Shown here in pieces: positions 8,725 to 44,085 of a stretch of DNA of 64,000 bases. Origin of the DNA: Roseibacillus sp. (GTDB lineage Bacteria > Verrucomicrobiota > Verrucomicrobiia > Verrucomicrobiales > Akkermansiaceae); the NCBI GenBank assembly GCA_051251855.1, contig JBPOGI010000001.1, forward strand, positions 1,312,001 to 1,376,000. The letters run 5' to 3'. The stretch's first letter is position 1. Each line of letters opens with the position of its first letter. A program made the position numbers and the translations under genes. Under the pieces are notes generated by a model. It was not told the origin of the DNA. It saw only the letters and a list, made by a program, of their open reading frames with translations, and made no database searches.

Positions 8725-11700
8725 ACCCTTCCATCGAATTCACCTCAGCTAGCGCGGGTTCCGGCAAAACCTATCGCCTTGTCGAGATCGTCTCGGAGGC
8801 CATCCTCGACGGCTCTGCACGCCCCCAAGGCATCGTCGCCACGACCTTCACGGTGGCCGCCGCCAATGAACTCCGGGAACGACTCAGCGCAAAGTTTTAC
8901 GAGACAGACCGCCACACCGATGCCGTCCTCCTCCGCTCGGGGATGATTGGCACGGTCCACGGTATTTGTCTTGATCTCCTGTCCCGGTTCTCCCTTGAGG
9001 CTGGCCTCTCGCCCGAGGTCACCATTCTCGACGACAATCAATCCAAGGAACTTCTCTCCCGTGCCTTCGACGCCATTCTAACCGGAGACGACGAGCAACA
9101 GCTCTATCAACTTTCGAAGCGGCTCTCCCAGGTCGACCCTCAGTCGAGCACCCACAACTTCCATTCGGTCATTCCCAGCATCGTCAATAATGCGCGGAGC
9201 AACGACATCGATCCCACAGACCTCCCCAAGACCGGGAAAGACAGTTGGGAGGAAATGAAAGCCGCGCTTCCTGCTCCAAGCAAAGATGATCTGGACAAGG
9301 AACTTGCAGACGCGATCAAGTGCGCCCTGAAAGAACTCGACCCGAACGCCAAGGCCAATGTTGTTCAAACCTACCGCCAACTCCTTCAGCAATGCTTGCG
9401 CGCTCTTGATAACGAAGGGCTCGATTGGTCGCACTGGAACAAACTCACCACTGCTAGCCCGGGCAAGGCTCAGGCTAATCTAGCCATCGCGCTCCCAGTT
9501 CAGGAGGCGGCCTCCCGTCTCGGTGAACACCCACGCTTTCACGAGGATCAAAAAAGCTACCTGAGTCTCCTTTTCAAAAAGGCTCAGCATCTCGCCGAGA
9601 GCTTTGGGCAACTCAAACGTGAACGCGGCGTAGCGGACTTCGCCGATCTCGAGAAAGAAGCGCTCGACCTGCTCACGAACTCGGAAGAAGTTCGCTCTAT
9701 CCTCAGCGCGGAGATCGACCTCCTCGTTGTCGATGAATTCCAGGACACAAGCCCCATCCAGCTCGCCCTCTTTTCTCGTCTTGCGGAGTGCGCCAAGCGC
9801 GTCGTCTGGGTTGGTGATGTCAAGCAAGCCATCTATGGTTTTCGTGGTTCCGATCCCGAACTCATCATCTCTGCCGTGGCCGGCGCGACAAAGACGCCTC
9901 CTCTCGATCTTTCTTGGCGCTCGGCTCCCGACCTCGTGCATTTCGTTAATGGATTTTTTGCCAAGCCCTTCGAAGAGAGCCTCGGCCTCCCACCAGAAGA
10001 AGTCACCCTCACCCCCCATCGCGAAACTCACGCCGAGGCCTCTCCTGCGCTGCGTATCGCCAAGGTCACCAGCGGCGAACAGACGGCAAAGGGACTTCCG
10101 AAAAAAACCAAAAACGAACACCGTATCGCTGCCACCGCCGACGCCATTCAGGTCTTTCTCGACTCCGACGAAAAGGTCATCGACAAGAATTCGATCACCC
10201 CACAAGACCCAGTTGGGAGCCTCCGCCCCGTCACCCCTCGCGATCTCGCCATCCTGGTCCGCACGGGTAAGAACGCCAGTGATCTGGCCGACGATCTGCG
10301 CGCCCGGGGAATCGACGTCTCGCTTTCCACCTCCGGACTCCTTACCACTCCGGAGTGCCAACTCGCTCTCGCCTGTCTTCGCGTTCTCGTTGATTCTCGC
10401 GACTCCCTCGCCTCCGCAGAAGTCATCGCCCTTGAGGCGAGTCATGCGCCCGAATCGTGGCTCAGTGATCGCTTCGAATACCTCAAGCAGAGAGCCGAGA
10501 ATCCTCCCGGGGAATCCTCGAAAGCATGGGGGCGCAAGGGCACAGTCTCCTCCCCAAGTATCGACGCCCTTCTCACAATCCGGGACGAACACAACCTAGC
10601 GACCCTGAGCCCACTCGCTCTCTACGATCTTGCTCATACCGCAGCCGATGTCCCCTCGCTCGCCTCAGCATGGGGCCCCACCCAACAACGCGCTGAGCAG
10701 CGCTTTGCCAATCTCTCCCGCCTCCGCGAGCTTGTGCAAGAATACCAAACCGCAGCTCATTCCAGCGCAGCCCCCGCAACCCTCAATGGACTCTTCGTTT
10801 GGCTAGATGACCTCGCCGATGACTTTGGTTCCAAGGAAGCCAAAGACAAGAGACCCATCGATCCGGAGATCGACTCTGTCCATATTGGCACCTACCACGG
10901 AGCAAAAGGCCTCGAATGGCCGGTGGTCTTTGCCTGCGACCTTGATTCCAAGACCCGCTCCCGTCTCTTCACTCTTCGCCAACTCAGTGAGTCCGCGAAA
11001 CTCGATTTCGCGGACCCTCTTGCCGGGCGTACCCTACGCCTCTGGATCAATCCTTTTGGAAAATCCAAGTCCCAGCTTGTCGACGACCTCGAAGCCTCTC
11101 CCGTTGGGCAACAGTCCGAGCAGAATGCCCAGTCCGAGGAGCTTCGCCTTCTCTATGTCGGATTCACCCGGGCACGCGACACCCTCGTTCTTGTGAACGA
11201 CCCTGCTACCACCCCCGAATGGCTCGACTTGACCTCTGCCGGTGACTTCCTCAAGGCCGAGAACAGCCCCTTCACTCTCGGAGAACACAGCCTACCTCTC
11301 ACCACTAGCACCCAAATTTACGAGCCCTTCGTTTCGCTGCCTCCCCCGGCCCCAACGATCCAACTCCCTGTCCGCGCCCCATCCCAAACTTCCCGCTTAC
11401 CACTCCACATCACACCCTCCTCACGCGAACCGATCGCCGGGGCCATCGTCACCGAAACCATCGAGTTTGGAACAGCTCTCCAAGTCCCATCGAGAATCAA
11501 CGCCCGTGATTACGGAGATGCCATGCACCGCATCATCGCGGCAGAGATTCAAAACCCAAACCACCCAGACCGGAACCTGCGCGCCGAGCGCCTCCTCACT
11601 CACTGGGACCTTCAGGAATCCATCTCCACGGACGAAATCCTAACTACCGTCGACACCTACCGCAAATGGATTGAGGATACATTCAACCCGACTCAACAAC

Positions 11701-11990
11701 TCATCGAAGTCCCCTTCACTCACACCACTCCTGACGGGCAACAAGCAACCGGCTTCATAGACCATCTCGTAATCACCCCGGATGGTCCGATCATCATCGA
11801 CCACAAGATCTATCCCGGCCCCAAGTCGACCTGGGACGAGACCGCCCTTTCATACTCTGGACAGCTAGCCCTCTACCGCCAGTTCGTCTCCACGATCTTC
11901 CCCGGGCAAAAAGAACCCGAATGCTGGATCCACTTCGCAAGCCACGGAGCCTCTCTCAAGGTCGAGATCCCCTCGACGAGCTTATCATAG
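8721..11990 (+). CDS. AddA/RexA-like UvrD (SF1) helicase with C-terminal RecB-type nuclease
   Basis: ASAGSGKT, TFTVAAANELRERL, VDEFQDTS, VGDVKQAIYGFRG, TYHGAKGLEW, RLLYVGFTRAR; nuclease motifs GFIDHL, IIDHK and QLALY. Confidence 0.9.
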   Translation: MNPSIEFTSASAGSGKTYRLVEIVSEAILDGSARPQGIVATTFTVAAANELRERLSAKFYETDRHTDAVLLRSGMIGTVHGICLDLLSRFSLEAGLSPEVTILDDNQSKELLSRAFDAILTGDDEQQLYQLSKRLSQVDPQSSTHNFHSVIPSIVNNARSNDIDPTDLPKTGKDSWEEMKAALPAPSKDDLDKELADAIKCALKELDPNAKANVVQTYRQLLQQCLRALDNEGLDWSHWNKLTTASPGKAQANLAIALPVQEAASRLGEHPRFHEDQKSYLSLLFKKAQHLAESFGQLKRERGVADFADLEKEALDLLTNSEEVRSILSAEIDLLVVDEFQDTSPIQLALFSRLAECAKRVVWVGDVKQAIYGFRGSDPELIISAVAGATKTPPLDLSWRSAPDLVHFVNGFFAKPFEESLGLPPEEVTLTPHRETHAEASPALRIAKVTSGEQTAKGLPKKTKNEHRIAATADAIQVFLDSDEKVIDKNSITPQDPVGSLRPVTPRDLAILVRTGKNASDLADDLRARGIDVSLSTSGLLTTPECQLALACLRVLVDSRDSLASAEVIALEASHAPESWLSDRFEYLKQRAENPPGESSKAWGRKGTVSSPSIDALLTIRDEHNLATLSPLALYDLAHTAADVPSLASAWGPTQQRAEQRFANLSRLRELVQEYQTAAHSSAAPATLNGLFVWLDDLADDFGSKEAKDKRPIDPEIDSVHIGTYHGAKGLEWPVVFACDLDSKTRSRLFTLRQLSESAKLDFADPLAGRTLRLWINPFGKSKSQLVDDLEASPVGQQSEQNAQSEELRLLYVGFTRARDTLVLVNDPATTPEWLDLTSAGDFLKAENSPFTLGEHSLPLTTSTQIYEPFVSLPPPAPTIQLPVRAPSQTSRLPLHITPSSREPIAGAIVTETIEFGTALQVPSRINARDYGDAMHRIIAAEIQNPNHPDRNLRAERLLTHWDLQESISTDEILTTVDTYRKWIEDTFNPTQQLIEVPFTHTTPDGQQATGFIDHLVITPDGPIIIDHKIYPGPKSTWDETALSYSGQLALYRQFVSTIFPGQKEPECWIHFASHGASLKVEIPSTSLS

Positions 11991-12398: not shown

Positions 12399-14075
12399 AT
12401 GGCGACGATGTTCCCTGCATACTTCCCCGACCTCAATCATGTCGACAATCCAGAATTTCAGGTCTACCAACTGCTAAGAGAACTTCCTGATAGCTTCTCT
12501 GTAATCCATTCGAAGAAGCTCAAGGGAGGCTTAAACTGTAAAGAGGAGACTGAAATTGACTTTCTCATCTTTGACGGGGGAAAAAACCTCATTTGCTTAG
12601 AGGTGAAAGGTGGCGAGATCGCCTACAATGGCTCTGAGTCTCGCTGGCATCAGAACGGGAAACCAATGAAACGTTCGCCCGACAGGCAGGCCTCCGCAGC
12701 TTGTCACGCCATTATCGAATTCCTTGGAAAAGACGCAGGCAACATCAACATAAATTGGGCACTTGCATTTCCTGATTGTAGTCGGCCTGCCGGATCGGGC
12801 CGTATACTAGAGGTCCCTGACGACCTCATCCTTGACTCAACGGCCCTTCTCAAACCGGTTGACGCCGTTCAGCGGGTTTGTCGATATAATGAGACTCATC
12901 ACGGTCGACCGGGGGTAAAACGATATCAGGCTTCGAACATTCTTGAACGCCTACTTCGTTCCGTTGGGTTTGTCACCAAAATCGGAGTCAACCTGATCCG
13001 AGACCAATCTCAACTCGTCAAGGCCACCGAGCAGCAGCTCGAGATCCTTGAGGATCTCGAATTGAACGAGAGAACCGCCGTCATGGGCTATGCGGGGACG
13101 GGCAAAACAATCATTGCAACCGAATTTGCGAAGCGGATGTCGAATTCAGGTAAACGGGTATTGCTGCTCTTCTACAATCGCATGGTGGCAAACTCAGTCC
13201 GCTACGGACTCGGTCGAGAATCCCCTATCGACTGCGCTACCTTCCATAGCCTCGCACGAAGAGAAATCGAGGCCAGCGAGAAGAGCTGGTGGAAAGCCAA
13301 CGTAAAGAAAGACGATCCCGAGTTCTGGGAAACCGAAGTTCCGCTCAAAATGCTCGAGGTGCTCGAGTCGAAAACGCCAGCCTACGACACAATCATTGTA
13401 GATGAGGGGCAGGACTTTAAGGCCGAATGGTTCGAGACGCTTGAAAGGCTTCTCGTTCGAAATGACAGCAGCCGTTGCGTTGTTTTCTATGATGACAATC
13501 AAGACATTTTTGGCCGATGGAACAATCTCCCCTGGGAGCCAAACACTTACACCCGCAAACGACTGAAGAAAAACTGCCGAAACACCAAGGCGATTATTGA
13601 TTACCTCAATTTGGTCATACCCTCCGAGATGATAGGATTCGCAAACTCTCCGGCTGGCCAACCTGTCCTCCTCAAAGAGCCCCCCAATCAGAATGAGGAG
13701 AGTAAACTGATCAAAAATGATATCGCCTTATTTCTGAAAGAAGGTGTAGAGCCCGGAAAGATCGTGATTCTCATCAATGACTCACTTGCTGAAAGCGCTG
13801 TCTCCTCGATCCAAAAAATTGGGCGTCACGCAGTCGAATGGATGGGTAGGACATACCGCCGCGACTCATCTGTAATCCAAGTTACTAATATTGAAAACTT
13901 TAAGGGACTGGAAGCTGACGTCCTACTTATTTCAGGGCTAACACCACAGGATGCAAAAACCGCGCCGGAAAAGCTCTATACTCAGGCGTCAAGAGCCCGC
14001 TTATATTTATCCATTTATTGCTCAGCCTCTGACAAGCCAGAATCCCGCACCCACATCAACAATCGACAACTGTAA
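12399..14075 (+). CDS. NERD nuclease domain plus SF1-like helicase/ATPase
   Basis: NERD motif EIDFLIF...CLEVKGG; Walker A GYAGTGKT; IVDEGQDF; NCRNT; FKGLE; YTQASRA. Confidence 0.88.
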   Translation: MATMFPAYFPDLNHVDNPEFQVYQLLRELPDSFSVIHSKKLKGGLNCKEETEIDFLIFDGGKNLICLEVKGGEIAYNGSESRWHQNGKPMKRSPDRQASAACHAIIEFLGKDAGNININWALAFPDCSRPAGSGRILEVPDDLILDSTALLKPVDAVQRVCRYNETHHGRPGVKRYQASNILERLLRSVGFVTKIGVNLIRDQSQLVKATEQQLEILEDLELNERTAVMGYAGTGKTIIATEFAKRMSNSGKRVLLLFYNRMVANSVRYGLGRESPIDCATFHSLARREIEASEKSWWKANVKKDDPEFWETEVPLKMLEVLESKTPAYDTIIVDEGQDFKAEWFETLERLLVRNDSSRCVVFYDDNQDIFGRWNNLPWEPNTYTRKRLKKNCRNTKAIIDYLNLVIPSEMIGFANSPAGQPVLLKEPPNQNEESKLIKNDIALFLKEGVEPGKIVILINDSLAESAVSSIQKIGRHAVEWMGRTYRRDSSVIQVTNIENFKGLEADVLLISGLTPQDAKTAPEKLYTQASRARLYLSIYCSASDKPESRTHINNRQL

Positions 14076-14218: not shown

Positions 14219-15175
14219 TCATTCCTCGTAGAGCGATGACCTGATCACTTGACTCTTAGCGCCCGGAACTGACCAAGAAACATCATCGAAGCAATAAGCT
14301 AACCACGGATAAAGGCGGGCTATAGCATCCTTAATTTCAAACCGATAAGGCAGCGGGACATCTTGCGCATTTTCATGAACAAATGCAGTAACTGCTCCGA
14401 AGTTCATTGATGGCCTACTTCGTATTTTCTCCACAATACGCTTCACAAAAAGTTGACTCTGGAAAGCCTGCATCGAGATCTCTTCAAAGTCTTCTTTTAG
14501 CAGATCACTCTCAGAGAGCTTGAGGCTTCCGATATCATGCAACATTTGAGGGCACATTTCATGGCCCTTAAGATAACTGGAAACGGCATCAAAGAAGGCT
14601 CGGGGACTCTCCGAAGCGGGCAGATCAGAAACCCTGAATTCCTTCTCCTCCATTGGGGGAAGAACGAGATTTCCGATAAACTGTGGGTCAACTTGAGATT
14701 CGTCGATCGCCCTCTGGTATGCCTCCACTACTTCTTTAGTTACTCTCCTGCTCTCATCGCAAAGACGACGGATATGACCGTAAGAATTGAAATCTAATGG
14801 ACTTAAAACCCCCATCTCCTCGTTGTAGGAATCACTCAATGAGAGCCCTTTATCCGTAATATTCGAACTCCCTGAATAGGCGAGACCTGATGAAAATTCA
14901 AAGAGCTTGAGATGAATCTTCGAATGTTGATACAACGGAATTTTTCTCTCCTTTAAGACGTCAAAAATCCCCAGATCAGAAGCACCTGCAAGAAGGTCCT
15001 CAACTTTCCACCTCACAACTAAGCGAGCGCTTTTAACAGGAAAAGTATCAAGAAACTCCTCTAGCGCACCACTCCTGATGAAGGGAGAAAAGGCAAGAAC
15101 CAGGGACTCATCTGCTGAAATATTAACTTTAAGATTTTTTAAGATCGGAGGCCAAATTGAGGGAAAACTGGACAT
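14219..15175 (-). CDS. Phospholipase D-family nuclease (single HxK motif)
   Basis: AFSPFI...IHLKLFEF...YSGSSNIT...NEEMG, the typical PLD/Nuc-type restriction nuclease domain, followed by a C-terminal domain of unknown function. Confidence 0.8.
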   Translation of the reverse strand: MSSFPSIWPPILKNLKVNISADESLVLAFSPFIRSGALEEFLDTFPVKSARLVVRWKVEDLLAGASDLGIFDVLKERKIPLYQHSKIHLKLFEFSSGLAYSGSSNITDKGLSLSDSYNEEMGVLSPLDFNSYGHIRRLCDESRRVTKEVVEAYQRAIDESQVDPQFIGNLVLPPMEEKEFRVSDLPASESPRAFFDAVSSYLKGHEMCPQMLHDIGSLKLSESDLLKEDFEEISMQAFQSQLFVKRIVEKIRSRPSMNFGAVTAFVHENAQDVPLPYRFEIKDAIARLYPWLAYCFDDVSWSVPGAKSQVIRSSLYEE

Positions 15176-15181
15176 ACGCCC

Positions 15182-16999
15182 TTACTTAAGACTCCCTTGA
15201 TACGCTTCGATCATATCGCTAACGCCTTTGCCCCACTTCATCCGCAAACTTTCATAATGTTTACGATCATCGTCGGTTATCCCCAAAGTGTCTTCGAGAC
15301 GAGCCCATGAGGCGAAGATTAATTTCAAACAATCAAATCCTATTCCCTCCTTCTCTTCAAGCTCTTCAATAAAAGCAGAATAAGCAGGATGCAACTTATT
15401 GATAGTAACTTTTAGTTTTCCAGCTGGGGTAGACACGTCGAAAATCACATCGCTCGCTCTGATGGGAGCTGAATTAAAAATATACTTCTCCCCTGCTAAC
15501 CACTCATTGAGTATAACCTCTTTATCTTCTTCAGCCGTATCTGAATCGTCCATTTCAAGCTCATCAGTAAGCTCCCTCTTTTTCTGAGCATCGGAAAGCT
15601 CAGCTGCTTTTTTATCGCTTACCCCTTCCTCGCCATCATGTTTAGCGGTCTTTGACGCTGCTGAAGCCGCTCGATCAGTTTCCTTGACTTTCTTTGCTTT
15701 CTTAACTCCGACAGTCTGTGACTTAATCGAGTTACGAATCCCACTTAAGAGTCTACGAATCTCATCGCAAATTTGGATAATGGGAAGCCTGGGATCGTCT
15801 TCAGACTCCATTTCCATTTCAAGTTGGGCAGCCTCAACGTCCTCGTCTTGTGCAATTTCACCTAAGCTGAGATTAGAAAATGCAGTGGCAGACTGCTTGT
15901 TGTTTGTCACACCAAAAACTTCGTCTAGGCCAGGCTCAAAGGCTACTTCGATACCCCACCATCGCTCAGTAGGATTATATGAATTTTCGAAGGATCTATT
16001 TAACTCTAGCTCTCGACCAGCTCTCAGAATTGAGACACCCTGATTCTTAGCAGCATGCTTTCCAAGAGGAGTTGATCCTGCAGGTAGATTAAGAGCATCG
16101 CAAGCCCGTCTAAAATCCTCTCTAGCTTCTGAAGCTTTAATTACCACCTCATGTTCTTGTCCACCCCAATTTATTTTTAAGGTTTTCGAGTCTCCGTATT
16201 GGACAAATTGAGCCTGCTTTTTATATCTGAAAGTCTCGTCTCCAACCTCGATTGACTCAGGAGCCTGCGTTCCCGTCATGAGATAAAGAGGGTCGTTAGG
16301 CTTACAGAAAGATTCGGTAAACGTCTCGTCTCCACCACTTTCAAGATATGCTGCGAGCCTAATCGTACAGGTCCCATCGTTAAGAAAGTAACGATACATT
16401 CTCCCCACAATAGCTGCAGTGTTAGCAAAAAAGGCCCGGCTTCGCCCCCACTTCATTCGATCAAGACGACTCCAAACTACCAATGTTCCGTGTTCCTCAA
16501 GCTTAGACTTTATTCGGCTTTTCCACTTTTCGGGAATTCCATCTACCTTTTCGGGAACTGGAACTTCATCCTTACCATCAATAATTTCATTTATATCTAG
16601 GTGAGAATGATGAACAGCGCCATCTCGCCAAGACCACACGTCAACCCTCTGACATTGAGAGACCGAGGAGTTGGGAAGCCCCATGCCAAACTTGCCCATG
16701 CCGATCTCAGCATCTAAATTAGTTCCTTGGGCAAACGCGAGAGACAGTTCCAAAGTTTCAGCGTCCATTCCACATCCATTATCGTAAACAGCAATCTCTT
16801 TTATTTTTTTGGAAGACCTGCGAGTTATGATAGTTTCTTCTTCAAGACAAATCAGCTCTACATCGATATTTTTTTCAGTTTTAAGTCCAGCCTGAATGCT
16901 GTTATCGATTATTTCGGCTATAGCATGAGCGGCATCTTTGTAGCCACTGTCACGCATCGCCTTTACGGTTAGCCCAGAAGTGAAATATTTTTTTGGCAT
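15182..16999 (-). CDS. MORC-like GHKL ATPase
   Basis: AIAEIIDNSIQA (N box), YDNGCGM (G1), GKFGMGL (G2), HGTLVVW, and S5-like GVSILRAGREL...LDEVFGVTNNKQ. The C-terminus is charged and coiled-coil-like. Confidence 0.88.
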   Translation of the reverse strand: MPKKYFTSGLTVKAMRDSGYKDAAHAIAEIIDNSIQAGLKTEKNIDVELICLEEETIITRRSSKKIKEIAVYDNGCGMDAETLELSLAFAQGTNLDAEIGMGKFGMGLPNSSVSQCQRVDVWSWRDGAVHHSHLDINEIIDGKDEVPVPEKVDGIPEKWKSRIKSKLEEHGTLVVWSRLDRMKWGRSRAFFANTAAIVGRMYRYFLNDGTCTIRLAAYLESGGDETFTESFCKPNDPLYLMTGTQAPESIEVGDETFRYKKQAQFVQYGDSKTLKINWGGQEHEVVIKASEAREDFRRACDALNLPAGSTPLGKHAAKNQGVSILRAGRELELNRSFENSYNPTERWWGIEVAFEPGLDEVFGVTNNKQSATAFSNLSLGEIAQDEDVEAAQLEMEMESEDDPRLPIIQICDEIRRLLSGIRNSIKSQTVGVKKAKKVKETDRAASAASKTAKHDGEEGVSDKKAAELSDAQKKRELTDELEMDDSDTAEEDKEVILNEWLAGEKYIFNSAPIRASDVIFDVSTPAGKLKVTINKLHPAYSAFIEELEEKEGIGFDCLKLIFASWARLEDTLGITDDDRKHYESLRMKWGKGVSDMIEAYQGSLK

Positions 17000-17011
17000 T
17001 ATGTGTATGTG

Positions 17012-18631
17012 TTAAAAATGAGAATTCCAGTGATTGAAACTTTCCGCAATACTGGTGAATGCAGGAAGATCACTATCGATAACAGTATGGACTTCACAGC
17101 TTTTCGTCCCATTCACCTTCGGACCACGTGTTGCTCTTCCAACCATCTGACTGTAAAGAGACAAGGAAGTAGTAGGACGAGTAATGATCACGGCTTGAGT
17201 CTGAGGAGCATCGAAACCGGTTGTAAGCACGCCGTAGTTAATCAAAATTTCGATTTCTCCAGATTTATATTCGGCAATGCGAGATGACCTCACCGCTCCT
17301 GGCGTCTTCCCGGTAACTAGTCCAACCTTCACCCCTTTATAAATTAAAAGAGCCGTCAGAGCCTCCGCGTGGGCAACCGAACACGCAAAGAGAATGGTTG
17401 GTAGCCCTCTTGCTATAACATCCAAAGTTCTCAAGATAATTTCGAAGTTTCGCTTAGTATCTTCCCCAAGCCGCTCCAGCATTTTAGGAGTAAAATCCTC
17501 TCCAATATCTAGCCGTTCTAGCTCGGATGAAGAAAAAAATAAATCAGATTTAGCCAACTTGAGGGGCCTGTATTCGACAAAAGACAAGTAACCTTCGGCT
17601 TGAAGAAATTGGATAGGTGAATCGAAGCCTTTAACCTCGAGCATTACCTTATTTTTATTGAAATATTGAGCAAATTTTGCATTTTCTTCTTCGTTCTCAG
17701 TAGATCTTCCCGGGGTAGCGGAAAGACCCAATAGGGATGCACTAAAAGCAGTGAGGTGTGTAACAACTGAATCGTAGGTAGGAGCCAAGATGCGATGCGC
17801 CTCATCAAAAACTACTAACGATGAATAAGAAAGAATTTGGTTTCTTTGAATCTGGTCCTTGAACGCCGCGTTCAACTTTTGCAAGCTAGCTACGACAATG
17901 CCAGGCTGAAGGTCGCTTAGAGGACAGGAGTAAGCGCCGTACAAACGAGTGAGTCTCTTTGGAGCCATCCCCAGAGCAGACCAGGCTTTATCAAATTCTT
18001 CAGCTGCTTGCGAACAAAGCTCCTCCGTATCAGCCAACCAGAATACAATCTTCTCGTCTCCCGATCTAATTTCATCATTAAGATGCTGGCAAATGATGCG
18101 CATCGCTGTCCGAGTCTTACCTGACCCGGTTGGCATGTGTAAAAGCGTTCGACCACCTTTTCTCAACAGTGCAGTTACTTTCTCGGCGGCATGCATCTGA
18201 TGCTCGAAGAGAGCGTATTTTGGAGAAATCAGCTCAGATTGCTCACACAGGTCTACTGCTTCTCTTTCCTCATAAACAGGCTTTATCAAACCAAAGAACT
18301 CTAACAACTGATCCTCTAAAGAAGAATCGTAGTTTAGCGCTACAGCCGTTTCCCAAGGATCATCTCCCTTGTCCACATTTACGGCCTCAAGAAAGGCCAC
18401 TACTTCACTCTCATCAAAATGACGTAATACACATCGTCTTCCCTTTTTGTCGAGGAGGATCCCTTCTGGCGTGTAGACATCACACAAGCATTGAGCCAGT
18501 TGAAGCTTATTCGTTTCGCCGCCAGAAACGTTTATCAGTGCGATGACCGCTGGAGAGACGAAAGTTTCGAAGTCTTCCATCCCGGCACGGGACAAAACTC
18601 TCGACAACTTTAAAGGTGACATATCGCGCAT
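17012..18631 (-). CDS. SF2 DEAH-box helicase (restriction-associated type)
   Basis: LFEHQ, HMPTGSGKT, FDEAH, LSATPGR, VLTTGFDAP, QMVGRATRG. The start overlaps the PAPS-reductase stop. Confidence 0.92.
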   Translation of the reverse strand: MRDMSPLKLSRVLSRAGMEDFETFVSPAVIALINVSGGETNKLQLAQCLCDVYTPEGILLDKKGRRCVLRHFDESEVVAFLEAVNVDKGDDPWETAVALNYDSSLEDQLLEFFGLIKPVYEEREAVDLCEQSELISPKYALFEHQMHAAEKVTALLRKGGRTLLHMPTGSGKTRTAMRIICQHLNDEIRSGDEKIVFWLADTEELCSQAAEEFDKAWSALGMAPKRLTRLYGAYSCPLSDLQPGIVVASLQKLNAAFKDQIQRNQILSYSSLVVFDEAHRILAPTYDSVVTHLTAFSASLLGLSATPGRSTENEEENAKFAQYFNKNKVMLEVKGFDSPIQFLQAEGYLSFVEYRPLKLAKSDLFFSSSELERLDIGEDFTPKMLERLGEDTKRNFEIILRTLDVIARGLPTILFACSVAHAEALTALLIYKGVKVGLVTGKTPGAVRSSRIAEYKSGEIEILINYGVLTTGFDAPQTQAVIITRPTTSLSLYSQMVGRATRGPKVNGTKSCEVHTVIDSDLPAFTSIAESFNHWNSHF

Positions 18632-19428
18632 CCGTTCGTTTCGTCCACTGGTTGGATTGACTTCTTTTTCCCGGCAACAACTTGGTCTAAGGTTTTTCCG
18701 TCCACCCAGGTAAATTGCCTATCTCCGATCTTTTTTTCGTATTCCTTGGCCTTCTCAAATAAATCTGGGTGATGTTTTTTCAGATTTTGCCATTCTCCAA
18801 TCTGTTGATAAAAGCAAAAATAGCATCCTGAACGCGACCTCCAATCATAGTAGGATGGCCATCCCAAGCCCGTTTCTTCAAGGATGTCTCTTACTCCATC
18901 GATTCCAATCTCAGCATCTCTAAATGGGTAAACCGCCTGGATTGTGGGCTTCTGCGAAAACACAGGGGGCTTTTTCCCCTTGTAGCCCTCACGGTCTTCA
19001 TCGCCTCTAATCCCGATATAGGAAATCGCGGTTGAGCCTTCTAGATGTTTCTCGAGAGGCTTAATTTTTAAGGTTCCGGTGCACCACCGTGAACGAGCAC
19101 TCGGAAGGTAATTTGACCAAATCTCAGTCAGAAAAATATCGAAAGGATTACGGTCCTTTTCTTCGATATTCAGGTAATTGAAAGCATTGATTCTCTCGAT
19201 CTTTTTTCCGAGAAGACGCTCTAATTTCTCAAGGAAATCGTAGGTCTCAGGGAGTTCGCACTTGGTGTCACAAAAGACATACTCTGCAGGAATCTGAGGA
19301 AAGTTGAGTTTGAGATACAATGCAAGTGCGGCGGAATCCTTACCACCACTTATGTTGACGATGTGTCTTCTTTCAGAATCTTCCGTAATCGCCGCTAAGG
19401 CTTCTTCCATGGATATCATTGTACTCAT
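18610..19428 (-). CDS. sspD: PAPS-reductase-family protein, SspD/DndC-like phosphorothioation enzyme
   Basis: PP-loop ISGGKDS, CDTKCELPETY, RWCTGTLKIKP, RSGCYFC, C-terminal CAICHL. It follows the DUF4007 and ATPase genes. Confidence 0.8.
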   Translation of the reverse strand: MSTMISMEEALAAITEDSERRHIVNISGGKDSAALALYLKLNFPQIPAEYVFCDTKCELPETYDFLEKLERLLGKKIERINAFNYLNIEEKDRNPFDIFLTEIWSNYLPSARSRWCTGTLKIKPLEKHLEGSTAISYIGIRGDEDREGYKGKKPPVFSQKPTIQAVYPFRDAEIGIDGVRDILEETGLGWPSYYDWRSRSGCYFCFYQQIGEWQNLKKHHPDLFEKAKEYEKKIGDRQFTWVDGKTLDQVVAGKKKSIQPVDETNGCAICHL

Positions 19429-22400
19429 CAGCGGCGTTTTCCTTTCTCTTTGGTAGCTTTTCCAAGCGATTCTAGAAAATCTGCAGCCAACTCTTCTCCC
19501 CCGACATCTTTAAGTTTTTGCAAAGCTTCCTCAATCCGAGACTGAATCAAATTAATCATACCTTTCGACTCGGTCTTGCTCGGTTTTAGGGATGATACGT
19601 CCTTACCGAAGGCGAAGTCCTCTACACTGCGAATACTTTCGGATAGTGTCGTACTAAAGTTATCGACGTCCCCGTCACCCCAGCGAGAAACCGAAGAGGA
19701 TGAGAGTTTTGGTAGGTCGGAAAGTGAGTCGATGAGTTGAGCATCACCTTCATAGTCGAATTGCATTCGCATAAGGATAACGTAGTCGGGATGGCTCTTT
19801 GAAATAAACTTGCTAAAGCTCTTCGCCCAGTCGTGAGCAGCCTCGCGCGTTGTTCTTTTGTCTGAATCTGGCACCTGAAGCGCTCGCCGAAGGAACTTGG
19901 CTGCGGTCTCGCGGTATTTGACGGTCACCGATTCAATTTCGGTTTTTGCCTCCGCTACAGACTTTTGCAGCTGCGGCCCGGACTCATCCTCAAAGATTTG
20001 TGGGATTCTAGTTAAAAGCAGAAACACAGGATCGTTACTGCGAAGAAGAGCATTTCTTAGGTCTTTTGCCGGTTTGGAAAGCTGTCGCGACTCCCTAACA
20101 GCCTCCGGCAGCTGGCGAAGCCAAGCCTGCAGAGCCTCAAAAGTTTTCCTTATTAAATCGGACTCATCACCCAGATGTTTTTGTTGGCAGAACAAATGAC
20201 GTAGCTCTTCAAGGTAGCTCACAGTGTCAGAGTCCAAGGCGAGGACTTTGACTCTGAACCTCTCCGGCTGCTTGCAGATTGTTTCAATCACTGACGGCAG
20301 AACGTCTGCGATATATTCCCCGTCTTTGAGGAGGCTCGTTGAGACAGCGAATGCCTTAAGACCTGCAGCAAAAAGAATGGGAAGAACTCCTGCCCTAACT
20401 CCAAAGGGTGGTGCCTGTAAGGTATCAAACAATTCTTGGGGCGAGCGCCCTTCCGGACAAGGGTCACGAAAGAAGTCTTCAATCAATGCCCAAACTTTAG
20501 ACAATCCAGGATCTTCAATGGCTGAAGGCTTAGTAAATCCCCATCCGTCGCTGAAAGGTGCATAAAGCCCTGTGTTGAGCAGAACCGTTCTAAAGATTGC
20601 GGCGTCAGGAAAATTCCCGGTAATTCCAAGCCCTTCTTTCCCCGTTCTCTCTAAAAGTGCTAACAGAGCTTTCTTCCGAGAATTAATCATCACAGGGGTC
20701 GGCTTCTTCTTAACGATCAGCTCATTCTGAATAACAGGGGTATCAGGATAGCTTTTGCCAGTAATCGCAGACAAAAAGATTTCGAGCTGACGGACAGATT
20801 CAATTTCAAAATCTTGCCCGCAATAGACCCAATCGGTTCCACTGGCGGAAGGTACAACAAGCTTATCCACCAATTTTGTTAGGTGGAGCCGAGCATCATC
20901 AAGCATTTGCTTAATCTCGGGAAGGACAAGTGGATCTGATTCAATGAGACCCGAGTCTCTTTCCATGCTCGAAAGAGCCGCAACCTCGGTGGCAGCATCG
21001 CGGATTTGAAGAGGTTCTGAGGGAATAGCAAAGACAATCCGCTTGTTTACCGAATCCTTGGTCTTGCTCGTTAGATTGATGGCCTTCCTGGCCTGTGCGA
21101 TCTCGTCAGCGGTTTCTCCAAGGAGGTAACAGACACGACCATCCACTGTCGAATCAAGCTCGAGGACCTCCGGGCGAATCACATTGAGATGATCTAGAAA
21201 ATCCTGCGCTCGAAAGTAGACACTCTCGAAATAACGTCGTACCCCGAAGGTGTCATTGTGCTCTCGCGGCCTCCAGCAAGGAGGAAGACACTCCCGTAGG
21301 AGGAATTGATTGAGATTGAAGACGGCCGACAGCCGTTGCTTCTCGTCCTCAAGCTTTGTGCGAAGATCCAAATCGGCTCCATGCCAGATAGAGACTTCAT
21401 CAGAATGCTTTCGGTGCAGTAAAAGTTTACGCGCTACCAGATTCTCAATCGTAGTTTCGGCTTCCGCTCGCGAACCATAGGAGGCACAAGCTGATACAAC
21501 CTGGTCGAAATTTACGCGGTATCTTTGTCCAGAGCTACCTAAGCTCATTAGGCAACAGGTTTTGAGAGCTTCTTCTTCAGCTGTAGTCTGAGCCTTGGAA
21601 AGAGCGCTCTCTGTTTCTAGCCACTGCCTAAACGTCCCACCCGCCTCGGAGTCGGTTCGCATCTGGTCACTAAAGAAGTCGTAGAGAACAGACGGCGTTA
21701 TCTCTTTCTCCAAGTCCAACGTGAACAAAAAGGTGAATAGGGTTCTTTCGTTCTGTGAGACACGTGCCGCAATCTTCGGCAGGAGAGCCAATGTTGAGGG
21801 ACTCAACGGCCATGCCCTTTTGAAAATCTCAGTGAGTTCTTTAATTGAAAAATTGGTCCACATCCCCTGCGCCTTTAACGTCTTAGCGGAACTCGCAATC
21901 TTAGCTTGAGAAGGGCTCTGAAGATCTGGACTACGGGACGAAACAATCTCCCCAAGGAGCCGGTAGATTTCCTTGCTGTCTTCAATGTAGTCGAGAGTTT
22001 GGAAGCGACCTTCAATCTTCTTCCACTCTCGCTTTGCCCCCGAAGGAAGCTTCTTCCCGTAGTGCATGAATCCCTGATGAAGAAACAGACTGAGAACTGT
22101 CGGTATTTTCTTCTGACGGGATACTCTTTCAGCAAGAGTCTGGAGGTCATGAAGATTTCCAGTGAGCCCCTCCGAAACGAGATACTCGAGATGACGCCCA
22201 AACTCATCCCAGTAAATGACAACTCGATCAGCTGAGGCTTTCTCTGCTGAATCTCTTAGTGCTACCATTACATCCTCAAGTGAACTCTTCTCTGATATCT
22301 CGGCAACGGGATAAGTCGCCGATTTTTTGCCCAGCCTCTTTAAAGAAGCGATAGCCGCATTAGCGATAGCGAGCGGAAGCGATTCAATCGCGCCCTCAAG

Positions 22401-22814
22401 GGCTAGGCCAAGGCCTTGCTCGCCACTTTCGATCCTTTGAATTGCAGCTTTTGAACTCGCAGCACTCACTTCACTCATTCTGCTCGCAATCTCAGAAAGA
22501 ATGGTTGCTCCCTTTCCCCGGTTCTCCACAAGTTGCAAGGCAAAGGTCGATGCTAGGCTCTTACCGGAACCGTATGGTGCGGTAACAAGAAACTCTCGTC
22601 CTTCCGTCTGACCTAGAAGCTTCTCAATGAGATCGACTGATTTTGCAGTTGGAAAAAAATGCGCAATTCTACCTGCGTCTCCTGCATCAAGAGCGACGTT
22701 TATAGACCGAAGGAAACGCTCTTGGGTTATCCGACTTTCTGGAGCTTTTTGTCTAGTTTTTGCCGCCATGATTTTAGCTTTGATTGTTCGTTCGATAGTG
22801 ACAATTTCAGCCAC
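19428..22814 (-). CDS. sspC: Large P-loop ATPase, SspC-like
   Basis: RFLRSINV, Walker A APYGSGKS, Walker B IYWDEFGRHLE, QNERTLFTFL, APPFGVRAG. It sits between DUF4007 and the PAPS reductase. The real start may be the ATG at 22769. Confidence 0.78.
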   Translation of the reverse strand: MAEIVTIERTIKAKIMAAKTRQKAPESRITQERFLRSINVALDAGDAGRIAHFFPTAKSVDLIEKLLGQTEGREFLVTAPYGSGKSLASTFALQLVENRGKGATILSEIASRMSEVSAASSKAAIQRIESGEQGLGLALEGAIESLPLAIANAAIASLKRLGKKSATYPVAEISEKSSLEDVMVALRDSAEKASADRVVIYWDEFGRHLEYLVSEGLTGNLHDLQTLAERVSRQKKIPTVLSLFLHQGFMHYGKKLPSGAKREWKKIEGRFQTLDYIEDSKEIYRLLGEIVSSRSPDLQSPSQAKIASSAKTLKAQGMWTNFSIKELTEIFKRAWPLSPSTLALLPKIAARVSQNERTLFTFLFTLDLEKEITPSVLYDFFSDQMRTDSEAGGTFRQWLETESALSKAQTTAEEEALKTCCLMSLGSSGQRYRVNFDQVVSACASYGSRAEAETTIENLVARKLLLHRKHSDEVSIWHGADLDLRTKLEDEKQRLSAVFNLNQFLLRECLPPCWRPREHNDTFGVRRYFESVYFRAQDFLDHLNVIRPEVLELDSTVDGRVCYLLGETADEIAQARKAINLTSKTKDSVNKRIVFAIPSEPLQIRDAATEVAALSSMERDSGLIESDPLVLPEIKQMLDDARLHLTKLVDKLVVPSASGTDWVYCGQDFEIESVRQLEIFLSAITGKSYPDTPVIQNELIVKKKPTPVMINSRKKALLALLERTGKEGLGITGNFPDAAIFRTVLLNTGLYAPFSDGWGFTKPSAIEDPGLSKVWALIEDFFRDPCPEGRSPQELFDTLQAPPFGVRAGVLPILFAAGLKAFAVSTSLLKDGEYIADVLPSVIETICKQPERFRVKVLALDSDTVSYLEELRHLFCQQKHLGDESDLIRKTFEALQAWLRQLPEAVRESRQLSKPAKDLRNALLRSNDPVFLLLTRIPQIFEDESGPQLQKSVAEAKTEIESVTVKYRETAAKFLRRALQVPDSDKRTTREAAHDWAKSFSKFISKSHPDYVILMRMQFDYEGDAQLIDSLSDLPKLSSSSVSRWGDGDVDNFSTTLSESIRSVEDFAFGKDVSSLKPSKTESKGMINLIQSRIEEALQKLKDVGGEELAADFLESLGKATKEKGKRR

Positions 22815-23683
22815 TCCTCTTTTGGTGCGTTCTTGATTTCGACCATTCGGTTACCCGCCATCCCGCGAACTCTGATCCACTCTTCACCCAATTCCTGCTC
22901 TGCCTTGAGAGCATAATCGTAGAGTTCTTCTGGACGCATCAGCAGAGCGCGTCCCGGGCCCGAACGACGTGACACGGCGTCCCCAATCGAGAGGGAAACG
23001 TAATCTTTGTCGTCCTCCGAAGAATCCTTAGCCCCACTTGCCATTACGCTGTAACCCAGCATGGTAGACGGAATCGACTTCATCCCGAATTGGGGAATAT
23101 AAAAACCCGACTCTCTCGAAAAAGTAAGTAAACCAAGACGAAGAAATGGGCAGTCTTTGGTATCCTCCGGTGTCAGGTCGAGCCGAGGTATCGTCTGGGC
23201 ATAACTGGCTAGAATCACTGAAACGTCCTTCTCTAGAGTCTTTTGTGCCGGACATCTGAAGCTCGGATTGTATTCGAGACTTCGTTTTAAGCTCTCCACG
23301 CAATAGGCCTTTTCAAAACGATTCGCTTTAAAGTCGTTGAAAAACCAGTTCCAAGCGAAGGCAAAGTTGGAGTTGTTTACCAGATTCACATGCAAGGCCC
23401 ACCAAGTCGCCTCTGATTGAAAGTAAGGATCAAATTCCTGAATCACTTTCGCAAGCTCACTTCTCTCGGTGACCTTCCCGCTTTCAGCTTCGAGAATTCC
23501 ATTCGTTAGCATTGTTGCGCTTAGCCAATGCCGAATCGATTTAATCATATTGCTACCGACACCAAGGATGTCAGCGGCCTCAGGAGACAAGAGCCCTTCT
23601 TCTCCAGGAACGTCGCAGATAGAGAGCCCCTTACGAAGCCACCCGTCCCTCAAATGGAATGTTTCGTGTCCTGCAAATTTCAT
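22727..23683 (-). CDS. sspB: DUF4007 protein, SspB-like nickase
   Basis: MKFAGHETFHLRDGWLRKG...LGVGSNMIKSIRHWL...FDPYFQSEATWWALH is the DUF4007 signature. Confidence 0.88.
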   Translation of the reverse strand: MKFAGHETFHLRDGWLRKGLSICDVPGEEGLLSPEAADILGVGSNMIKSIRHWLSATMLTNGILEAESGKVTERSELAKVIQEFDPYFQSEATWWALHVNLVNNSNFAFAWNWFFNDFKANRFEKAYCVESLKRSLEYNPSFRCPAQKTLEKDVSVILASYAQTIPRLDLTPEDTKDCPFLRLGLLTFSRESGFYIPQFGMKSIPSTMLGYSVMASGAKDSSEDDKDYVSLSIGDAVSRRSGPGRALLMRPEELYDYALKAEQELGEEWIRVRGMAGNRMVEIKNAPKEEWLKLSLSNEQSKLKSWRQKLDKKLQKVG

Positions 23684-24804
23684 GATACGAGAAGTTGTGA
23701 TTGCCGAAGCAGTTGAGTGAAGCTCGAGCCAATTCTGTTCACGGCGAGATCAACTTCCTCCGGTGAGTTGTAAATTGAAAAAGAAAACCTTATACTCGAA
23801 CGCGCGACTTCCTCAGAAACCCCCATGGCAGTGAGCACATAGGAGGGTTCGGGACGTCCAGTAATGCAAGCTGACACCTGAGAACAGATCACTCCTACAA
23901 GATCGAGTTTTGCGACAAGAGCGGCACCATCGACTCCCTCGAATTGAATGTTGGTAGTATTGGGGATACGCGGGCTTGTTGCTCCATTAATTCTCAATTC
24001 GGAATGAGATGAAAGAAGCTTGGATTCAAATTTGTTCCGTAATGACTCGAGGTATGCTGCGTTATTTCGTTCCGAAGCGAGGCGCTCCTGAACCACTGCT
24101 CCAAATGCAATAATCCCAGGTGAGTTCGGAGTATGTATATTTGAAAATAGAGTCTCGAAGTCACCCTGACTGTCTCCCACTAGGATTACCCCTACTCCTT
24201 GCGGTCCATGCATTTTGTGTGCGGTGAAGGTCATGAAGTCAATTCGTCCGACAAGGTCGGGATCAATTTCAATCTTCCCTACTACCTGGGCAGCGTCGAC
24301 ATGAAGAGTCGCGCCATGAAGCTTGCAAATTTCGACAATTTCGCAGATGGGCTGAAGTACCCCGGTCTCACTGTTAGCCCACTGAATCGAAACGGCTCGA
24401 CACTCGTTCTTCTCGAGCTTGAGTTTAAATGCCCCTAAATCGATCAGCCCGTTAGATTCCACAGGGAGAGAAAAAACCTTCTTGGACCGAATGCCTGAGT
24501 AGGCTTCAACTACAGAAGAATGTTCGGTTTCAAGAAAAGCCAAAACCTCACACTCCTTTGCCATGTGCTCTATGACCTTTCGATTTGCCTCTGCCCCCCC
24601 CGAAGTAAATCCAACGGACATTTCGTTGTCGGTTCCAAGAAATCTCGCAACACGATAAGCGGTTTGATTGATTGCACTGCGTGCGGATTCACCCACTCCG
24701 TGAATATTCGAAGGATTTCCCCACAACTCTCCAAGAGCGCGGTTCATCTCTTGAACAGCAACCCTCGACGGCATTGTTGTGCTATTATTGTCTAAGTAGA
24801 TCAT
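23680..24804 (-). CDS. sspA: Cysteine desulfurase (IscS/DndA/SspA-like)
   Basis: IYLDNNSTT, HVDAAQ, PLP lysine in TAHKMHGPQGVG, catalytic Cys in SAC. It is translationally coupled to the DUF4007 gene. Confidence 0.88.
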   Translation of the reverse strand: MIYLDNNSTTMPSRVAVQEMNRALGELWGNPSNIHGVGESARSAINQTAYRVARFLGTDNEMSVGFTSGGAEANRKVIEHMAKECEVLAFLETEHSSVVEAYSGIRSKKVFSLPVESNGLIDLGAFKLKLEKNECRAVSIQWANSETGVLQPICEIVEICKLHGATLHVDAAQVVGKIEIDPDLVGRIDFMTFTAHKMHGPQGVGVILVGDSQGDFETLFSNIHTPNSPGIIAFGAVVQERLASERNNAAYLESLRNKFESKLLSSHSELRINGATSPRIPNTTNIQFEGVDGAALVAKLDLVGVICSQVSACITGRPEPSYVLTAMGVSEEVARSSIRFSFSIYNSPEEVDLAVNRIGSSFTQLLRQSQLLVS

Positions 24805-25040
24805 AGGGAAGGATCTCCTCTCATCTTTGAATGTGGGGAATCAAATCCATCTTTGGATTGAAGATTTGTAGCCTGACTAGCAAACAACGACGGCTGCTTT
24901 TTATCTTCAACGTAACCGGTTGCTTTCTCAAGGAACCACGCCTTCAGATTGGTCTCATCTTCACGAAGAGCCGAATAAAGTTCATTTTTGAACTCCGGTT
25001 CTAAATCGATCACTATCCTTCCTGAATCACTCCGTGGCAC
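24801..25040 (-). CDS. Small putative ribbon-helix-helix regulator
   Basis: SGRIVIDLEPEFKNELYSALREDETNLKAWFLEKA shows a strand-helix-helix pattern. A GTG start at 25040 is assumed (alternative ATG at 25058). It overlaps the desulfurase start. Confidence 0.55.
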   Translation of the reverse strand: MPRSDSGRIVIDLEPEFKNELYSALREDETNLKAWFLEKATGYVEDKKQPSLFASQATNLQSKDGFDSPHSKMRGDPSL

Positions 25041-25041
25041 C

Positions 25042-25065
25042 CATGTAACATGGCTCATGTAACAT
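25042..25065. promoter_or_regulatory. Tandem CATGTAACAT direct repeat, candidate operator
   Basis: An exact 10-mer at 25042-25051 and 25056-25065, each copy nearly palindromic, immediately upstream of the small regulator. Confidence 0.5.
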
Positions 25066-31788: not shown

Positions 31789-31799
31789 GACCAATTTGG

Positions 31800-41149: not shown

Positions 41150-41278
41150 AGACAACGTTTCAACACGACCTATCCGACTGGCTTGACGCACCTTCGCTAC
41201 CCGTACCATGCCCCTGCCTCCAGTCAAGCCTTCGACCCACCAGCGGGGTCGAATTTATGATTCTTCGTATTGTCAGCC
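41150..41278 (-). repeat. attC-like repeat, copy B (129 bp)
   Basis: Starts at the HIRAN stop (GGCTGAC) and ends GAAACGTTGTCT, with the GTT 10 nt before the next ATG. It shares a ~60-bp near-identical core with copy C. Confidence 0.5.
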
Positions 41279-43749: not shown

Positions 43750-44011
43750 ATCTCCCTCCATCGCGACGGCTTCATCAAAGCTGGCTCAACACCCGGAGGA
43801 TTGATTACTGAAATCCTACCAACAGTTTTAAAAGGCTAAGCAATGTCCGTTCAGACACTGAAAACGTTCGACCCCACAAAAAACGCAAAAATCCTTCGCC
43901 ACTATTTCGCCAGTAAGTGGCCACAAACCCCTGCATTTGGGTGCATACTGCTGCATTTCCAACACACACTAAATCCGATTCAACCCTTTAACAGAAAGAG
44001 ATTTAAGAGAG

Positions 44012-44085
44012 AGGCGGCGGGCGGATTCGAACCGCCGAATACAGGTTTTGCAAACCCGCGCCTTAGACCACTTGGCCACGCCGCC
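44012..44085 (-). tRNA. tRNA-Cys(GCA)
   Basis: GGCGGCGTGGCCAAGTGGTCTAAGGCGCGGGTTTGCAAAACCTGTATTCGGCGGTTCGAATCCGCCCGCCGCCT: acceptor stem, GCA anticodon, TTCGAA loop and U73 discriminator. CCA is not encoded. Confidence 0.95.

Follow-up and report, generated by a model that had tools for sequence, protein, structure and literature searches.

The window analysed here is a stretch of 64,000 nucleotides of Roseibacillus sp. (contig JBPOGI010000001.1). Our subject is a locus within it in which sspABCD, the genes for DNA phosphorothioate (PT) modification, are followed by genes for a superfamily 2 (SF2) DEAH helicase, a MORC-like GHKL ATPase and a phospholipase D (PLD) type nuclease with an HKD motif. 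We call these last three genes the trio and the source genome of the window G000 (95.4% complete), and we give L numbers to the related loci, which were gathered by similarity to the ATPase alone.

The locus and its proteins

The seven genes all lie on the minus strand (Table 1), at the positions that the first-pass annotation of this DNA had stated, and the junctions from sspA through sspB, sspC, sspD, helicase and MORC to PLD measure -4, -88, -1, -22, +12 and +6 bp in that order. The fourth is the overlap of the helicase start with the sspD stop that had also been remarked on. What had been missed are an 85-aa open reading frame (ORF) and a methyltransferase gene that extend the same-strand run upstream, and the integrated island that encloses the locus. 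No SspE gene had been visible; Pfam and PADLOC likewise find none at the locus, and tblastn with queries from related loci (three of them for SspE) found no match to SspE, SspF, SspG or DndB-like genes anywhere in G000. For SspH, G000 yields no more than two partial matches, both to the C-terminal FtsK region, which lie on another contig. The GC content of the locus genes is 44-49%, against 53-54% for the large contigs. A promoter and terminator scan did not rise above the level of shuffles, repeats in the window did not go beyond chance, and the CCA trinucleotide is not depleted (ratio 1.195 in the first 2.5 Mb of G000), which is uninformative.

Table 1. Features of the locus and of the island around it (window positions unless a G000 contig is given)
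Feature	Coordinates	Strand	Evidence and remarks
SspA, cysteine desulfurase, 374 aa	23680..24804	-	PADLOC SspA 4e-84; Pfam Aminotran_5; AHKMHG at 195, SAC at 311
SspB, DUF4007, 318 aa	22727..23683	-	Pfam DUF4007 4e-61; PADLOC SspB 5e-84
SspC, P-loop ATPase, 1128 aa from GTG	19428..22814	-	PADLOC SspC 1e-159; Walker A APYGSGKS at 79
SspD, PAPS-reductase-family PP-loop protein, 272 aa	18610..19428	-	PADLOC SspD 4e-88
SF2 DEAH helicase/translocase, 539 aa	17012..18631	-	Pfam ResIII/DEAD/Helicase_C
MORC-like GHKL+S5 ATPase (1-432) with uncharacterised C-terminal domain (432-605)	15182..16999	-	HATPase_c_3 2e-17
Single-HKD (Nuc/BfiI/SauUSI-type) nuclease domain (1-156) with helical/winged-helix domain (176-315)	14219..15175	-	
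85-aa ORF overlapping sspA start	24801..25058	-	
DNA phosphorothioation-associated putative methyltransferase, 673 aa	25094..27115	-	TIGR04096 559 bits, cut-off 150
Right attachment repeat, within tRNA-Cys	44008..44056		49-bp direct repeat, 94%; tRNA-Cys at 44011-44085
Left attachment repeat, just left of window	G000:C1:1309038-1309086		
Tyrosine integrase gene, outside window	G000:C1:1309186-1310367		Pfam Phage_integrase 1e-09
AddB/AddA-like pair (PD-(D/E)xK protein, UvrD helicase-nuclease)	6079..11990	+	GC 58%, inside island
NERD nuclease with superfamily 1 helicase	12399..14075	+	PADLOC RTasNERD-Hel 4e-59
McrB-like AAA_5 protein, then 433-aa protein	30037..33101	+	433-aa protein without family match

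The sspABCD set in the window is intact, with adjacent SspB, SspC and SspD, a cysteine desulfurase, and the expected motifs kept, including SGGKDS at position 27 of SspD and its Cys motifs at 114, 198 and 267. The true start of SspC may be the ATG at 22769 rather than the GTG. The 85-aa ORF has no match in Pfam, PADLOC or NCBIfam; homologues stand directly upstream of sspB in L020 and L033, and it is possibly a regulator. The methyltransferase gene is a frequent yet optional companion, present in 10 of 45 SspD-bearing metagenome loci. Elsewhere the modification genes themselves vary. A divergent Ssp subtype (L043, L048, L053 and L095, also L134, L146 and L148) has the order long PAPS-reductase-like gene, sspB, sspC and then a divergent desulfurase, the first of these encoding about 540-570 aa as seen in L095, L134, L146 and L148, and among its loci some have the trio and others SspE. 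Additionally, genes of the DndB/DGQHR family lie between sspD and the trio or adjoin it in L006, L008, L042, L054, L069, L091 and L093, and it is possible that these are regulators borrowed from dnd systems.

The helicase has a variable N-terminal domain of about 130 aa and an intact motor (MPTGSGKT at 166, DEAH at 276, SAT, and motif VI QMVGR at 495), and its protein has no HKD domain by Pfam or PADLOC. A complex prediction for two MORC C-terminal domains (432-605) with the helicase scored 0.01 against a mark of 0.32, which has no bearing either way.

In the ATPase an S5 domain comes after a GHKL domain that has the ATP-binding motifs, as in the MORC family of Iyer 2008. Residues E29, N33, D73, the G-boxes, T172, R326, R329, K368 and Q369 are invariant in 84 of 84 homologues, and relatives number 4602 at E <= 1e-20 among 8000 candidates scored. 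Its predicted structure has a predicted local distance difference test (pLDDT) score of 88.5, and the best folds for the model of residues ~1-432 are MORC3 (Z 20.7, root-mean-square deviation (rmsd) 3.7, 310 aligned), SMCHD1 (Z 20.4) and MORC4 (Z 19.2), with Hsp90, topo VI and MutL folds close behind at a Z margin of about 1-2.5. The S5 motif GhXhhpXXRhl, which bears on MORC versus paraMORC, is fitted by GVSILRAGREL at 321 save for Glu at the penultimate hydrophobic place. "MORC-like" would thus seem a fair label, covering both strict MORC and paraMORC. A PDB sequence search with the MORC profile gave no matches, and in the ESM Atlas the C-terminal part reached 0.94 to small unnamed proteins. 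In seven loci MORC is directly followed by an additional small gene whose similarity is confined to the MORC C-terminal domain (profile ~463-598): L024:11793-12701, L035:11804-12685, L044:11766-12296, L053:9474-10148, L060:5007-5552, L066:3604-4263 and L076:11144-12058; the three that were scanned have no Pfam match. Second, unrelated GHKL genes lie in or beside L010:6668-8323, L048:12740-14650, L085:12767-17142 and L080, one of them fused to a DpnII/MboI-type nuclease.

The nuclease assignment relies on invariant residues and predicted fold, not on the Pfam match, which is only a sub-threshold PLDc_2 at E 0.008. H88, K90, N105 and E120 are invariant in 113 of 113 rows, with the "D" place of HKD varying (Asp in 30 of the 113), and cluster representatives number 1248 at E <= 1e-3. 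The model (pLDDT 95) places an N-terminal half-PLD fold next to SauUSI (Z 12.7, rmsd 2.3, 146 aligned), BfiI (Z 11.7) and Nuc (Z 10.6), and the single HxK...GSxN...E catalytic set on such a half-fold is a Nuc/BfiI-type feature. Nuc-type nucleases dimerise to build one active site. From these features the protein is a putative DNase. Its C-terminal domain (~176-315) matches 3bhw (Z 7.7), the nickase N.BspD6I (7.3), BrxA (6.1) and FokI (5.6), and might be a BrxA/FokI-like DNA-recognition domain, a suggestion we take as a lead only. The match deserves attention, since a structural kinship of BrxA, SspB and the recognition domain of FokI has been described (PMC12839542, PMC10853773; statements from papers cited by PMC number refer throughout to the portions of their text available). 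With hhalign, the PLD C-terminus, the helicase N-terminus and the MORC C-terminus reached at best ~3% probability against SspB, SspC, SspE, SspF, SspG, SspH and the nuclease of the second form described below, and in the ESM Atlas the PLD part scored below 0.8, to unnamed or PLD-family clusters only.

Linkage, modular exchange and genomic setting

Conservation of the trio next to sspBCD in other genomes had been proposed as a check, and it turned out to be strong and to extend across phyla. Our metagenome set consists of the best 80 of 521 confirmed stretches, with flanks of 10 kb; many of the 80 loci are short, and the profile hidden Markov models (HMMs) were built from these same loci. With at least 6 kb on both sides, 24 of 25 loci have sspB, sspC or sspD, and the 25th has sspFGH, which brings any ssp gene to 25 of 25. 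The figures for all 80 loci are 51 with sspB/C/D and 56 with any ssp gene, and those for loci of at least 10 kb are 40/46 and 43/46. A helicase is directly upstream of MORC in 73 of the 75 loci with at least 400 bp upstream, and a nuclease is found in 54 of the 57 with at least 1 kb downstream, 41 of them PLD and 13 PD-(D/E)xK.

Plasmids, genomes and viral contigs agree with this. The ATPase matches 36 plasmid records, 14 at >=80% coverage and 13 of these at >=30% identity. All 12 of the full-length matches at that identity that were opened are helicase-MORC-nuclease sets beside ssp genes, and the 13th has an SspD match 5 kb away; the carriers belong to Alphaproteobacteria, Cyanobacteria, Bacteroidota and Spirochaetota. 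Cultured carriers include Roseobacter litoralis B14 (pROLI83), Mesorhizobium onobrychidis (pOM4) and Trichormus variabilis ATCC 29413 (plasmid A). Conversely, the trio is full-length on 11 of 60 listed SspD-bearing plasmids. Two samples of 401 evenly drawn genomes each were taken from the window's phylum and from the phylum of genome G401. The former has the ATPase in 2/401 and DUF4007 in 18/401, both ATPase genomes being among the 18, and the other carrier there, G092, has exactly the gene order of the window. The latter has the ATPase in 6/401, comprising four strong matches with trio and ssp genes and two weak GHKL-only matches without this combination. Strong matches in the two samples, the window aside, thus have ssp neighbours in 5 of 5 cases. 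Among 16 viral loci, five of the six full-length matches carry sspABCD and the trio, the sixth begins at a contig end, and the ten weak matches lack both. Distant MORCs (H14, H16, H19 and the weak viral and genome matches) lose the ssp link: of four more distant plasmid matches, three are without ssp genes by profiles, and the fourth, H15, is a rearranged MORC-PC4-helicase-PLD block with sspD ~6 kb off. A single-protein scan of genome contigs gave one spurious 16-residue match and no relatives.

The placement of the trio beside sspD is not fixed. Of 62 loci, 34 have it after sspD in the same orientation, 24 have it downstream and facing sspD, and 4 have another arrangement; it is on the strand opposite sspD in 26, and there it must therefore form its own transcription unit. 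Distance matrices from 29 loci with all six genes give Spearman correlations of 0.53-0.75 within the trio and 0.64-0.91 within SspBCD, whereas the values between modules are only 0.10-0.25, with permutation maxima of 0.20-0.43, and mostly fall inside the permutation range. Co-divergence within but hardly between the modules means that the trio moves as a module between Ssp loci. On the simplest reading what it would need is the PT product and not a fixed, co-evolving protein contact, as with SspFGH.

The trio occurs in two forms. Type A, to which the trio of the window belongs, combines PLD with a live helicase (GKT and DEAH kept in 55 of 55 homologues). Type B (L002, L003, L011-L015, L018, L019, L021-L023, L027, L030, L031, L039 and L041) has a dead helicase (GKT 0/14, DExH 0/14), an intact MORC (17/17) and, where type A has PLD, a protein of ~360 aa whose N-terminus is PD-(D/E)xK-like and which matches the PADLOC "Effector, Endonuclease" model. 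A quick tree with midpoint rooting nests type B in type A as one clade of 17 rows (Shimodaira-Hasegawa-like approximate likelihood ratio test 100), and because it is one clade we count it as a single event. Type B is often in one operon with sspFGH and could be an unrecognised extension of SspFGH systems. Plasmid pUSP2 of Aminobacter MSH1 is among its carriers.

It is SspFGH, not SspE, that the PLD form excludes. In the metagenome set SspFGH accompanies none of 49 type A loci and 10 of 15 type B loci. On plasmids, SspG is present in 34 of 60 listed SspD carriers (63 found) and in 0 of 10 type A carriers, with a nominal p of 7e-5, from a hand-counted table, that overstates the contrast, kin and duplicates being included. 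The window's six closest plasmid SspD relatives among those listed all have SspG instead of the trio. The plasmid search for SspE, with one query at E 1e-40, gave 4 records and undercounts SspE.

The locus lies on an island of ~47 kb integrated at tRNA-Cys, as judged from a direct repeat of part of tRNA-Cys 47 kb apart next to an integrase gene. The NERD gene converges on the PLD gene and is probably a separate defence gene, with a homologue near only one related locus, L049. The AAA_5 and 433-aa genes look like a McrBC-type pair. Other cargo at 612-2354 (+), 28009-28500 (+), 37136-38437 (-) and 41273-41884 (-) comprises a family A DNA polymerase, HAD_SAK_2, an AAA ATPase and a HIRAN-domain gene, and the housekeeping genes ppx, ppk and rsmB begin past tRNA-Cys.

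A proposed restriction module and its alternatives

We think it probable, with considerable room for doubt, that the trio is a third, uncatalogued Ssp restriction module cutting unmarked DNA, in which MORC acts as clamp loader, the SF2 protein as scanner and an HKD dimer as cutter. In favour of this are the linkage to ssp genes, the modular exchange between Ssp loci, the intact catalytic residues, the absence of SspFGH beside the PLD form, the position of the trio as sole Ssp partner in G000, and an island with defence-like genes. SspABCD, as is established for its family and as the genes present here lead us to expect, would put single-strand PT marks on host DNA, and the trio would be a separate, swappable module that depends on this mark. 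A MORC dimer would first close on duplex DNA as an ATP-gated clamp and license or load its partners in a complex. The SF2 motor would then translocate and so sample PT density over a stretch, which would suit PT because the mark is only partly present at its sites. Finally, a nuclease dimer would engage DNA through the BrxA/FokI-like domain and nick or cut where PT is missing, the target being incoming phage or plasmid DNA. The trio would in this way sense PT and act against phage, fill the slot that SspFGH fills elsewhere, and be able to stack with SspE.

Several observations weigh against this proposal. Three loci of at least 10 kb (L048, L054 and L065) show no ssp gene within the available stretch, and L010, L035 and L049, each with at least 1 kb downstream, keep helicase and MORC without either nuclease. 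The whole type B clade persists despite its lost helicase motor, so that some forms can do without translocation. Kinship and host bias make the exclusion of SspFGH look stronger than it is (of 10 PLD-type plasmids, 5 come from Cyanobacteria), as do, in the metagenome set, the 10-kb flanks and HMMs derived from the same loci. The best NCBIfam match of the helicase is the repair helicase RadD, at 118 bits against a cut-off of 720. The BrxA/FokI-like matches of the nuclease C-terminal domain are middling (Z 5.6-7.7), and hhalign finds no link of this domain to SspB or SspG. SspE, additionally, is a neighbour of the trio in L024 and L158, and of a helicase-MORC pair without PLD in L049. The first-pass annotation had the trio "in place of SspE", which is too narrow, since this coexistence means that the trio is not a strict SspE replacement. 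Two of the refuting conditions it named, a match to a catalogued system and a lack of conservation beside sspBCD elsewhere, were checked and did not come true, which gives its reading partial support.

Weak co-divergence between the modules is equally expected of a loosely linked guard or repair module. A guard, or abortive-infection module, would not read PT on target DNA and would be silent while SspBCD works; it would fire on host and phage DNA alike when a phage blocks Ssp or when MORC binds a phage structure. Coexistence with SspE, and in type B with SspFGH, fits such a role, and a dead helicase that is nonetheless retained is expected of a scaffold or sensor, so that the dead-helicase form riding with SspFGH may act in this way. 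Suicide action has also been raised for HKD and SF2 effectors of PT systems (Rakesh et al., PMC10853773). However, a guard of an SspBCD protein should co-diverge with SspBCD, which the trio hardly does, and in G000, as often elsewhere, no partner but the PLD form is present; nor was that form seen with SspFGH. For the trio as a whole we consider a guard role unlikely, albeit worth keeping in mind.

More doubtful still is a role in repair of PT lesions or maintenance of the mark, in which the trio would remove PT sites that are oxidised or broken, or use PT to tell the strands apart, and have no anti-phage role. MutL-UvrD-MutH repair offers an analogy. A GHKL ATPase with a helicase and a nicking nuclease resembles that set (PMC2292703), PT oxidation and repair are mentioned in PMC12914056, and the trio is tied closely to the mark and not to one SspBCD clade; the RadD match of the helicase and weak MutL matches in 10 of 47 MORC rows point the same way. 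Repair of this kind would sit poorly with Ssp loci that mostly lack the trio (it is present in 2 of the 18 DUF4007 genomes of the window's phylum), and its absence beside SspFGH suggests an equivalent slot. Two further traits, the exchange of PLD for a restriction-fold nuclease with an effector-endonuclease match and the presence of the trio on plasmids, islands and viral contigs, are what conflict systems typically show.

An accessory of the modification machine, for example one that unwinds or nicks DNA for sulfur insertion, would explain why the trio is co-oriented, often overlapping and right after sspD in 34 of 62 loci. We regard it as very improbable, since SspBCD and IscS make PT without such genes (PMC8092258) and the trio neither co-diverges with SspBCD nor keeps to its strand. 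The notion of an independent defence system merely sharing islands with ssp genes, which a defence-rich window (NERD helicase, McrB-like AAA) and reassorting modules might suggest, is close to refuted by the want of any well-flanked lone copy and by ssp neighbours that are constant in metagenomes, plasmids and genomes although DUF4007 is in so few of the latter.

Returning to the restriction module, the trio is a real, conserved, Ssp-linked and apparently unnamed module. The fuller proposition, that it is a widespread third Ssp module in which a bacterial MORC clamp, closest to MORC3 and SMCHD1, reads backbone sulfur and gates a helicase-nuclease, seems to us evenly poised between right and wrong. 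If true, it would provide a prokaryotic MORC acting on an epigenetic mark, an explanation for part of the "orphan" sspBCD loci, and a natural derived form, with dead helicase and swapped nuclease, that joined SspFGH. In the survey of Wang et al. 2021 (PMC8092258), 83.9% of sspBCD loci contained neither SspE nor SspFGH, and partners as yet unknown were suggested; the trio is a concrete candidate for such a partner, in a locus that is one 10.6-kb block. A 2008 prediction has prokaryotic MORCs act in restriction by reading DNA marks (PMC2292703), and the trio offers a small system for studying it, as well as the reading of a PT mark that is sparse and partial. With a live helicase and PLD in one natural form and a dead helicase and PD-(D/E)xK in the other, it would also have a comparison of motor and clamp built in.

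Comparison with known systems

The comparison with SspE, SspF/G/H, DndFGH and PbeABCD models that had been advised for the trio gave no full PADLOC or NCBIfam system, only domain-level matches (MzaB, PbeA, DrmC, ZacB), and the same PADLOC library identifies genuine SspE and SspF/G/H in related loci. SspE can be rejected, as no DUF262+DUF1524 protein was found at the locus by Pfam and PADLOC or in G000 with three related queries, and real SspE is recognised in L024 and L049. SspFGH is rejected as well, since no trio protein matches the SspF/G/H models, which score L002 and L011 proteins at 1e-219 or better. For PbeABCD the helicase lacks HKD, its top PADLOC match, to PbeA, is partial (1e-25 over ~200 aa), and PbeB, PbeC and PbeD have no match. 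BREX type 4 fails on the absence of PglZ and BrxL among 12 locus proteins and on SspC and SspD models that far outscore BrxC and BrxP (1e-159 for SspC vs 1.5e-74 for BrxC). Mza shares with the ATPase only the GHKL domain of MzaB (63 bits, cut-off 850), with no other Mza match in the locus scan. DISARM shares the HKD domain of DrmC, which is matched by 51 of 113 nuclease rows at E <= 1e-5, with no DrmA or DrmB match in the locus scan. In the literature searched, which left subscription papers and supplements largely outside its coverage, we found no account of helicase-MORC-PLD beside ssp genes. The available text of PMC10853773, PMC12839542 and PMC12707154 does not contain "MORC", and that of the Tiamat preprint (bioRxiv 10.64898/2026.09.30.754977) contains neither "Ssp" nor "phosphorothio".

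Prokaryotic MORC and paraMORC operons are like the trio in placing a GHKL+S5 ATPase by an SF2 helicase and a nuclease, a few with HKD, and have a predicted restriction-modification role (PMC2292703). In those operons bases are methylated as the mark and HKD is part of the helicase chain, whereas the window encodes HKD in a protein of its own that includes a helical domain, and the predicted mark is PT; the main text of that paper, as available, does not contain phosphorothioate, Dnd, PAPS or desulfurase. SauUSI, which with BfiI is the best structural match of the HKD domain, unites PLD nuclease and helicase (PMC12707154), but there they share a single polypeptide with an SRA reader, and the target is methylated DNA. 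The locus in the window instead encodes nuclease and helicase as separate proteins, has a MORC-like ATPase besides, and gives the nuclease a helical/winged-helix C-terminal domain.

Among systems tied to PT, a 2025 review has the restriction branches DndFGH/SspFGH, SspE and PbeABCD only (PMC12707154). PbeABCD with DndCDEA likewise ties PT modification to an HKD nuclease and an SF2 helicase; there, however, PbeA fuses HKD and helicase, and its companions next to the dnd genes are a DndE cognate and a CxC ABC ATPase (PMC10853773), while the window has an unfused nuclease, an ATPase of the GHKL type and ssp as partner. SspABCD-SspFGH has the same modification genes as the window, a three-gene partner adjoining sspBCD and the ability to stack with SspE. 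SspABCD-SspE, too, shares these modification genes; as reportedly described by Xiong and colleagues in 2020, its SspE is said to be a single DUF262-DUF1524 protein. The SspFGH partner is moreover swappable between SspBCD clades and functions with foreign SspBCD (PMC8092258). The proteins differ, SspF, SspG and SspH being ~600, 500 and 1800 aa in the loci collected, SspF with a Walker A motif and SspH with a C-terminal FtsK-like region, where the trio consists of an SF2 helicase, a GHKL ATPase and an HKD nuclease.

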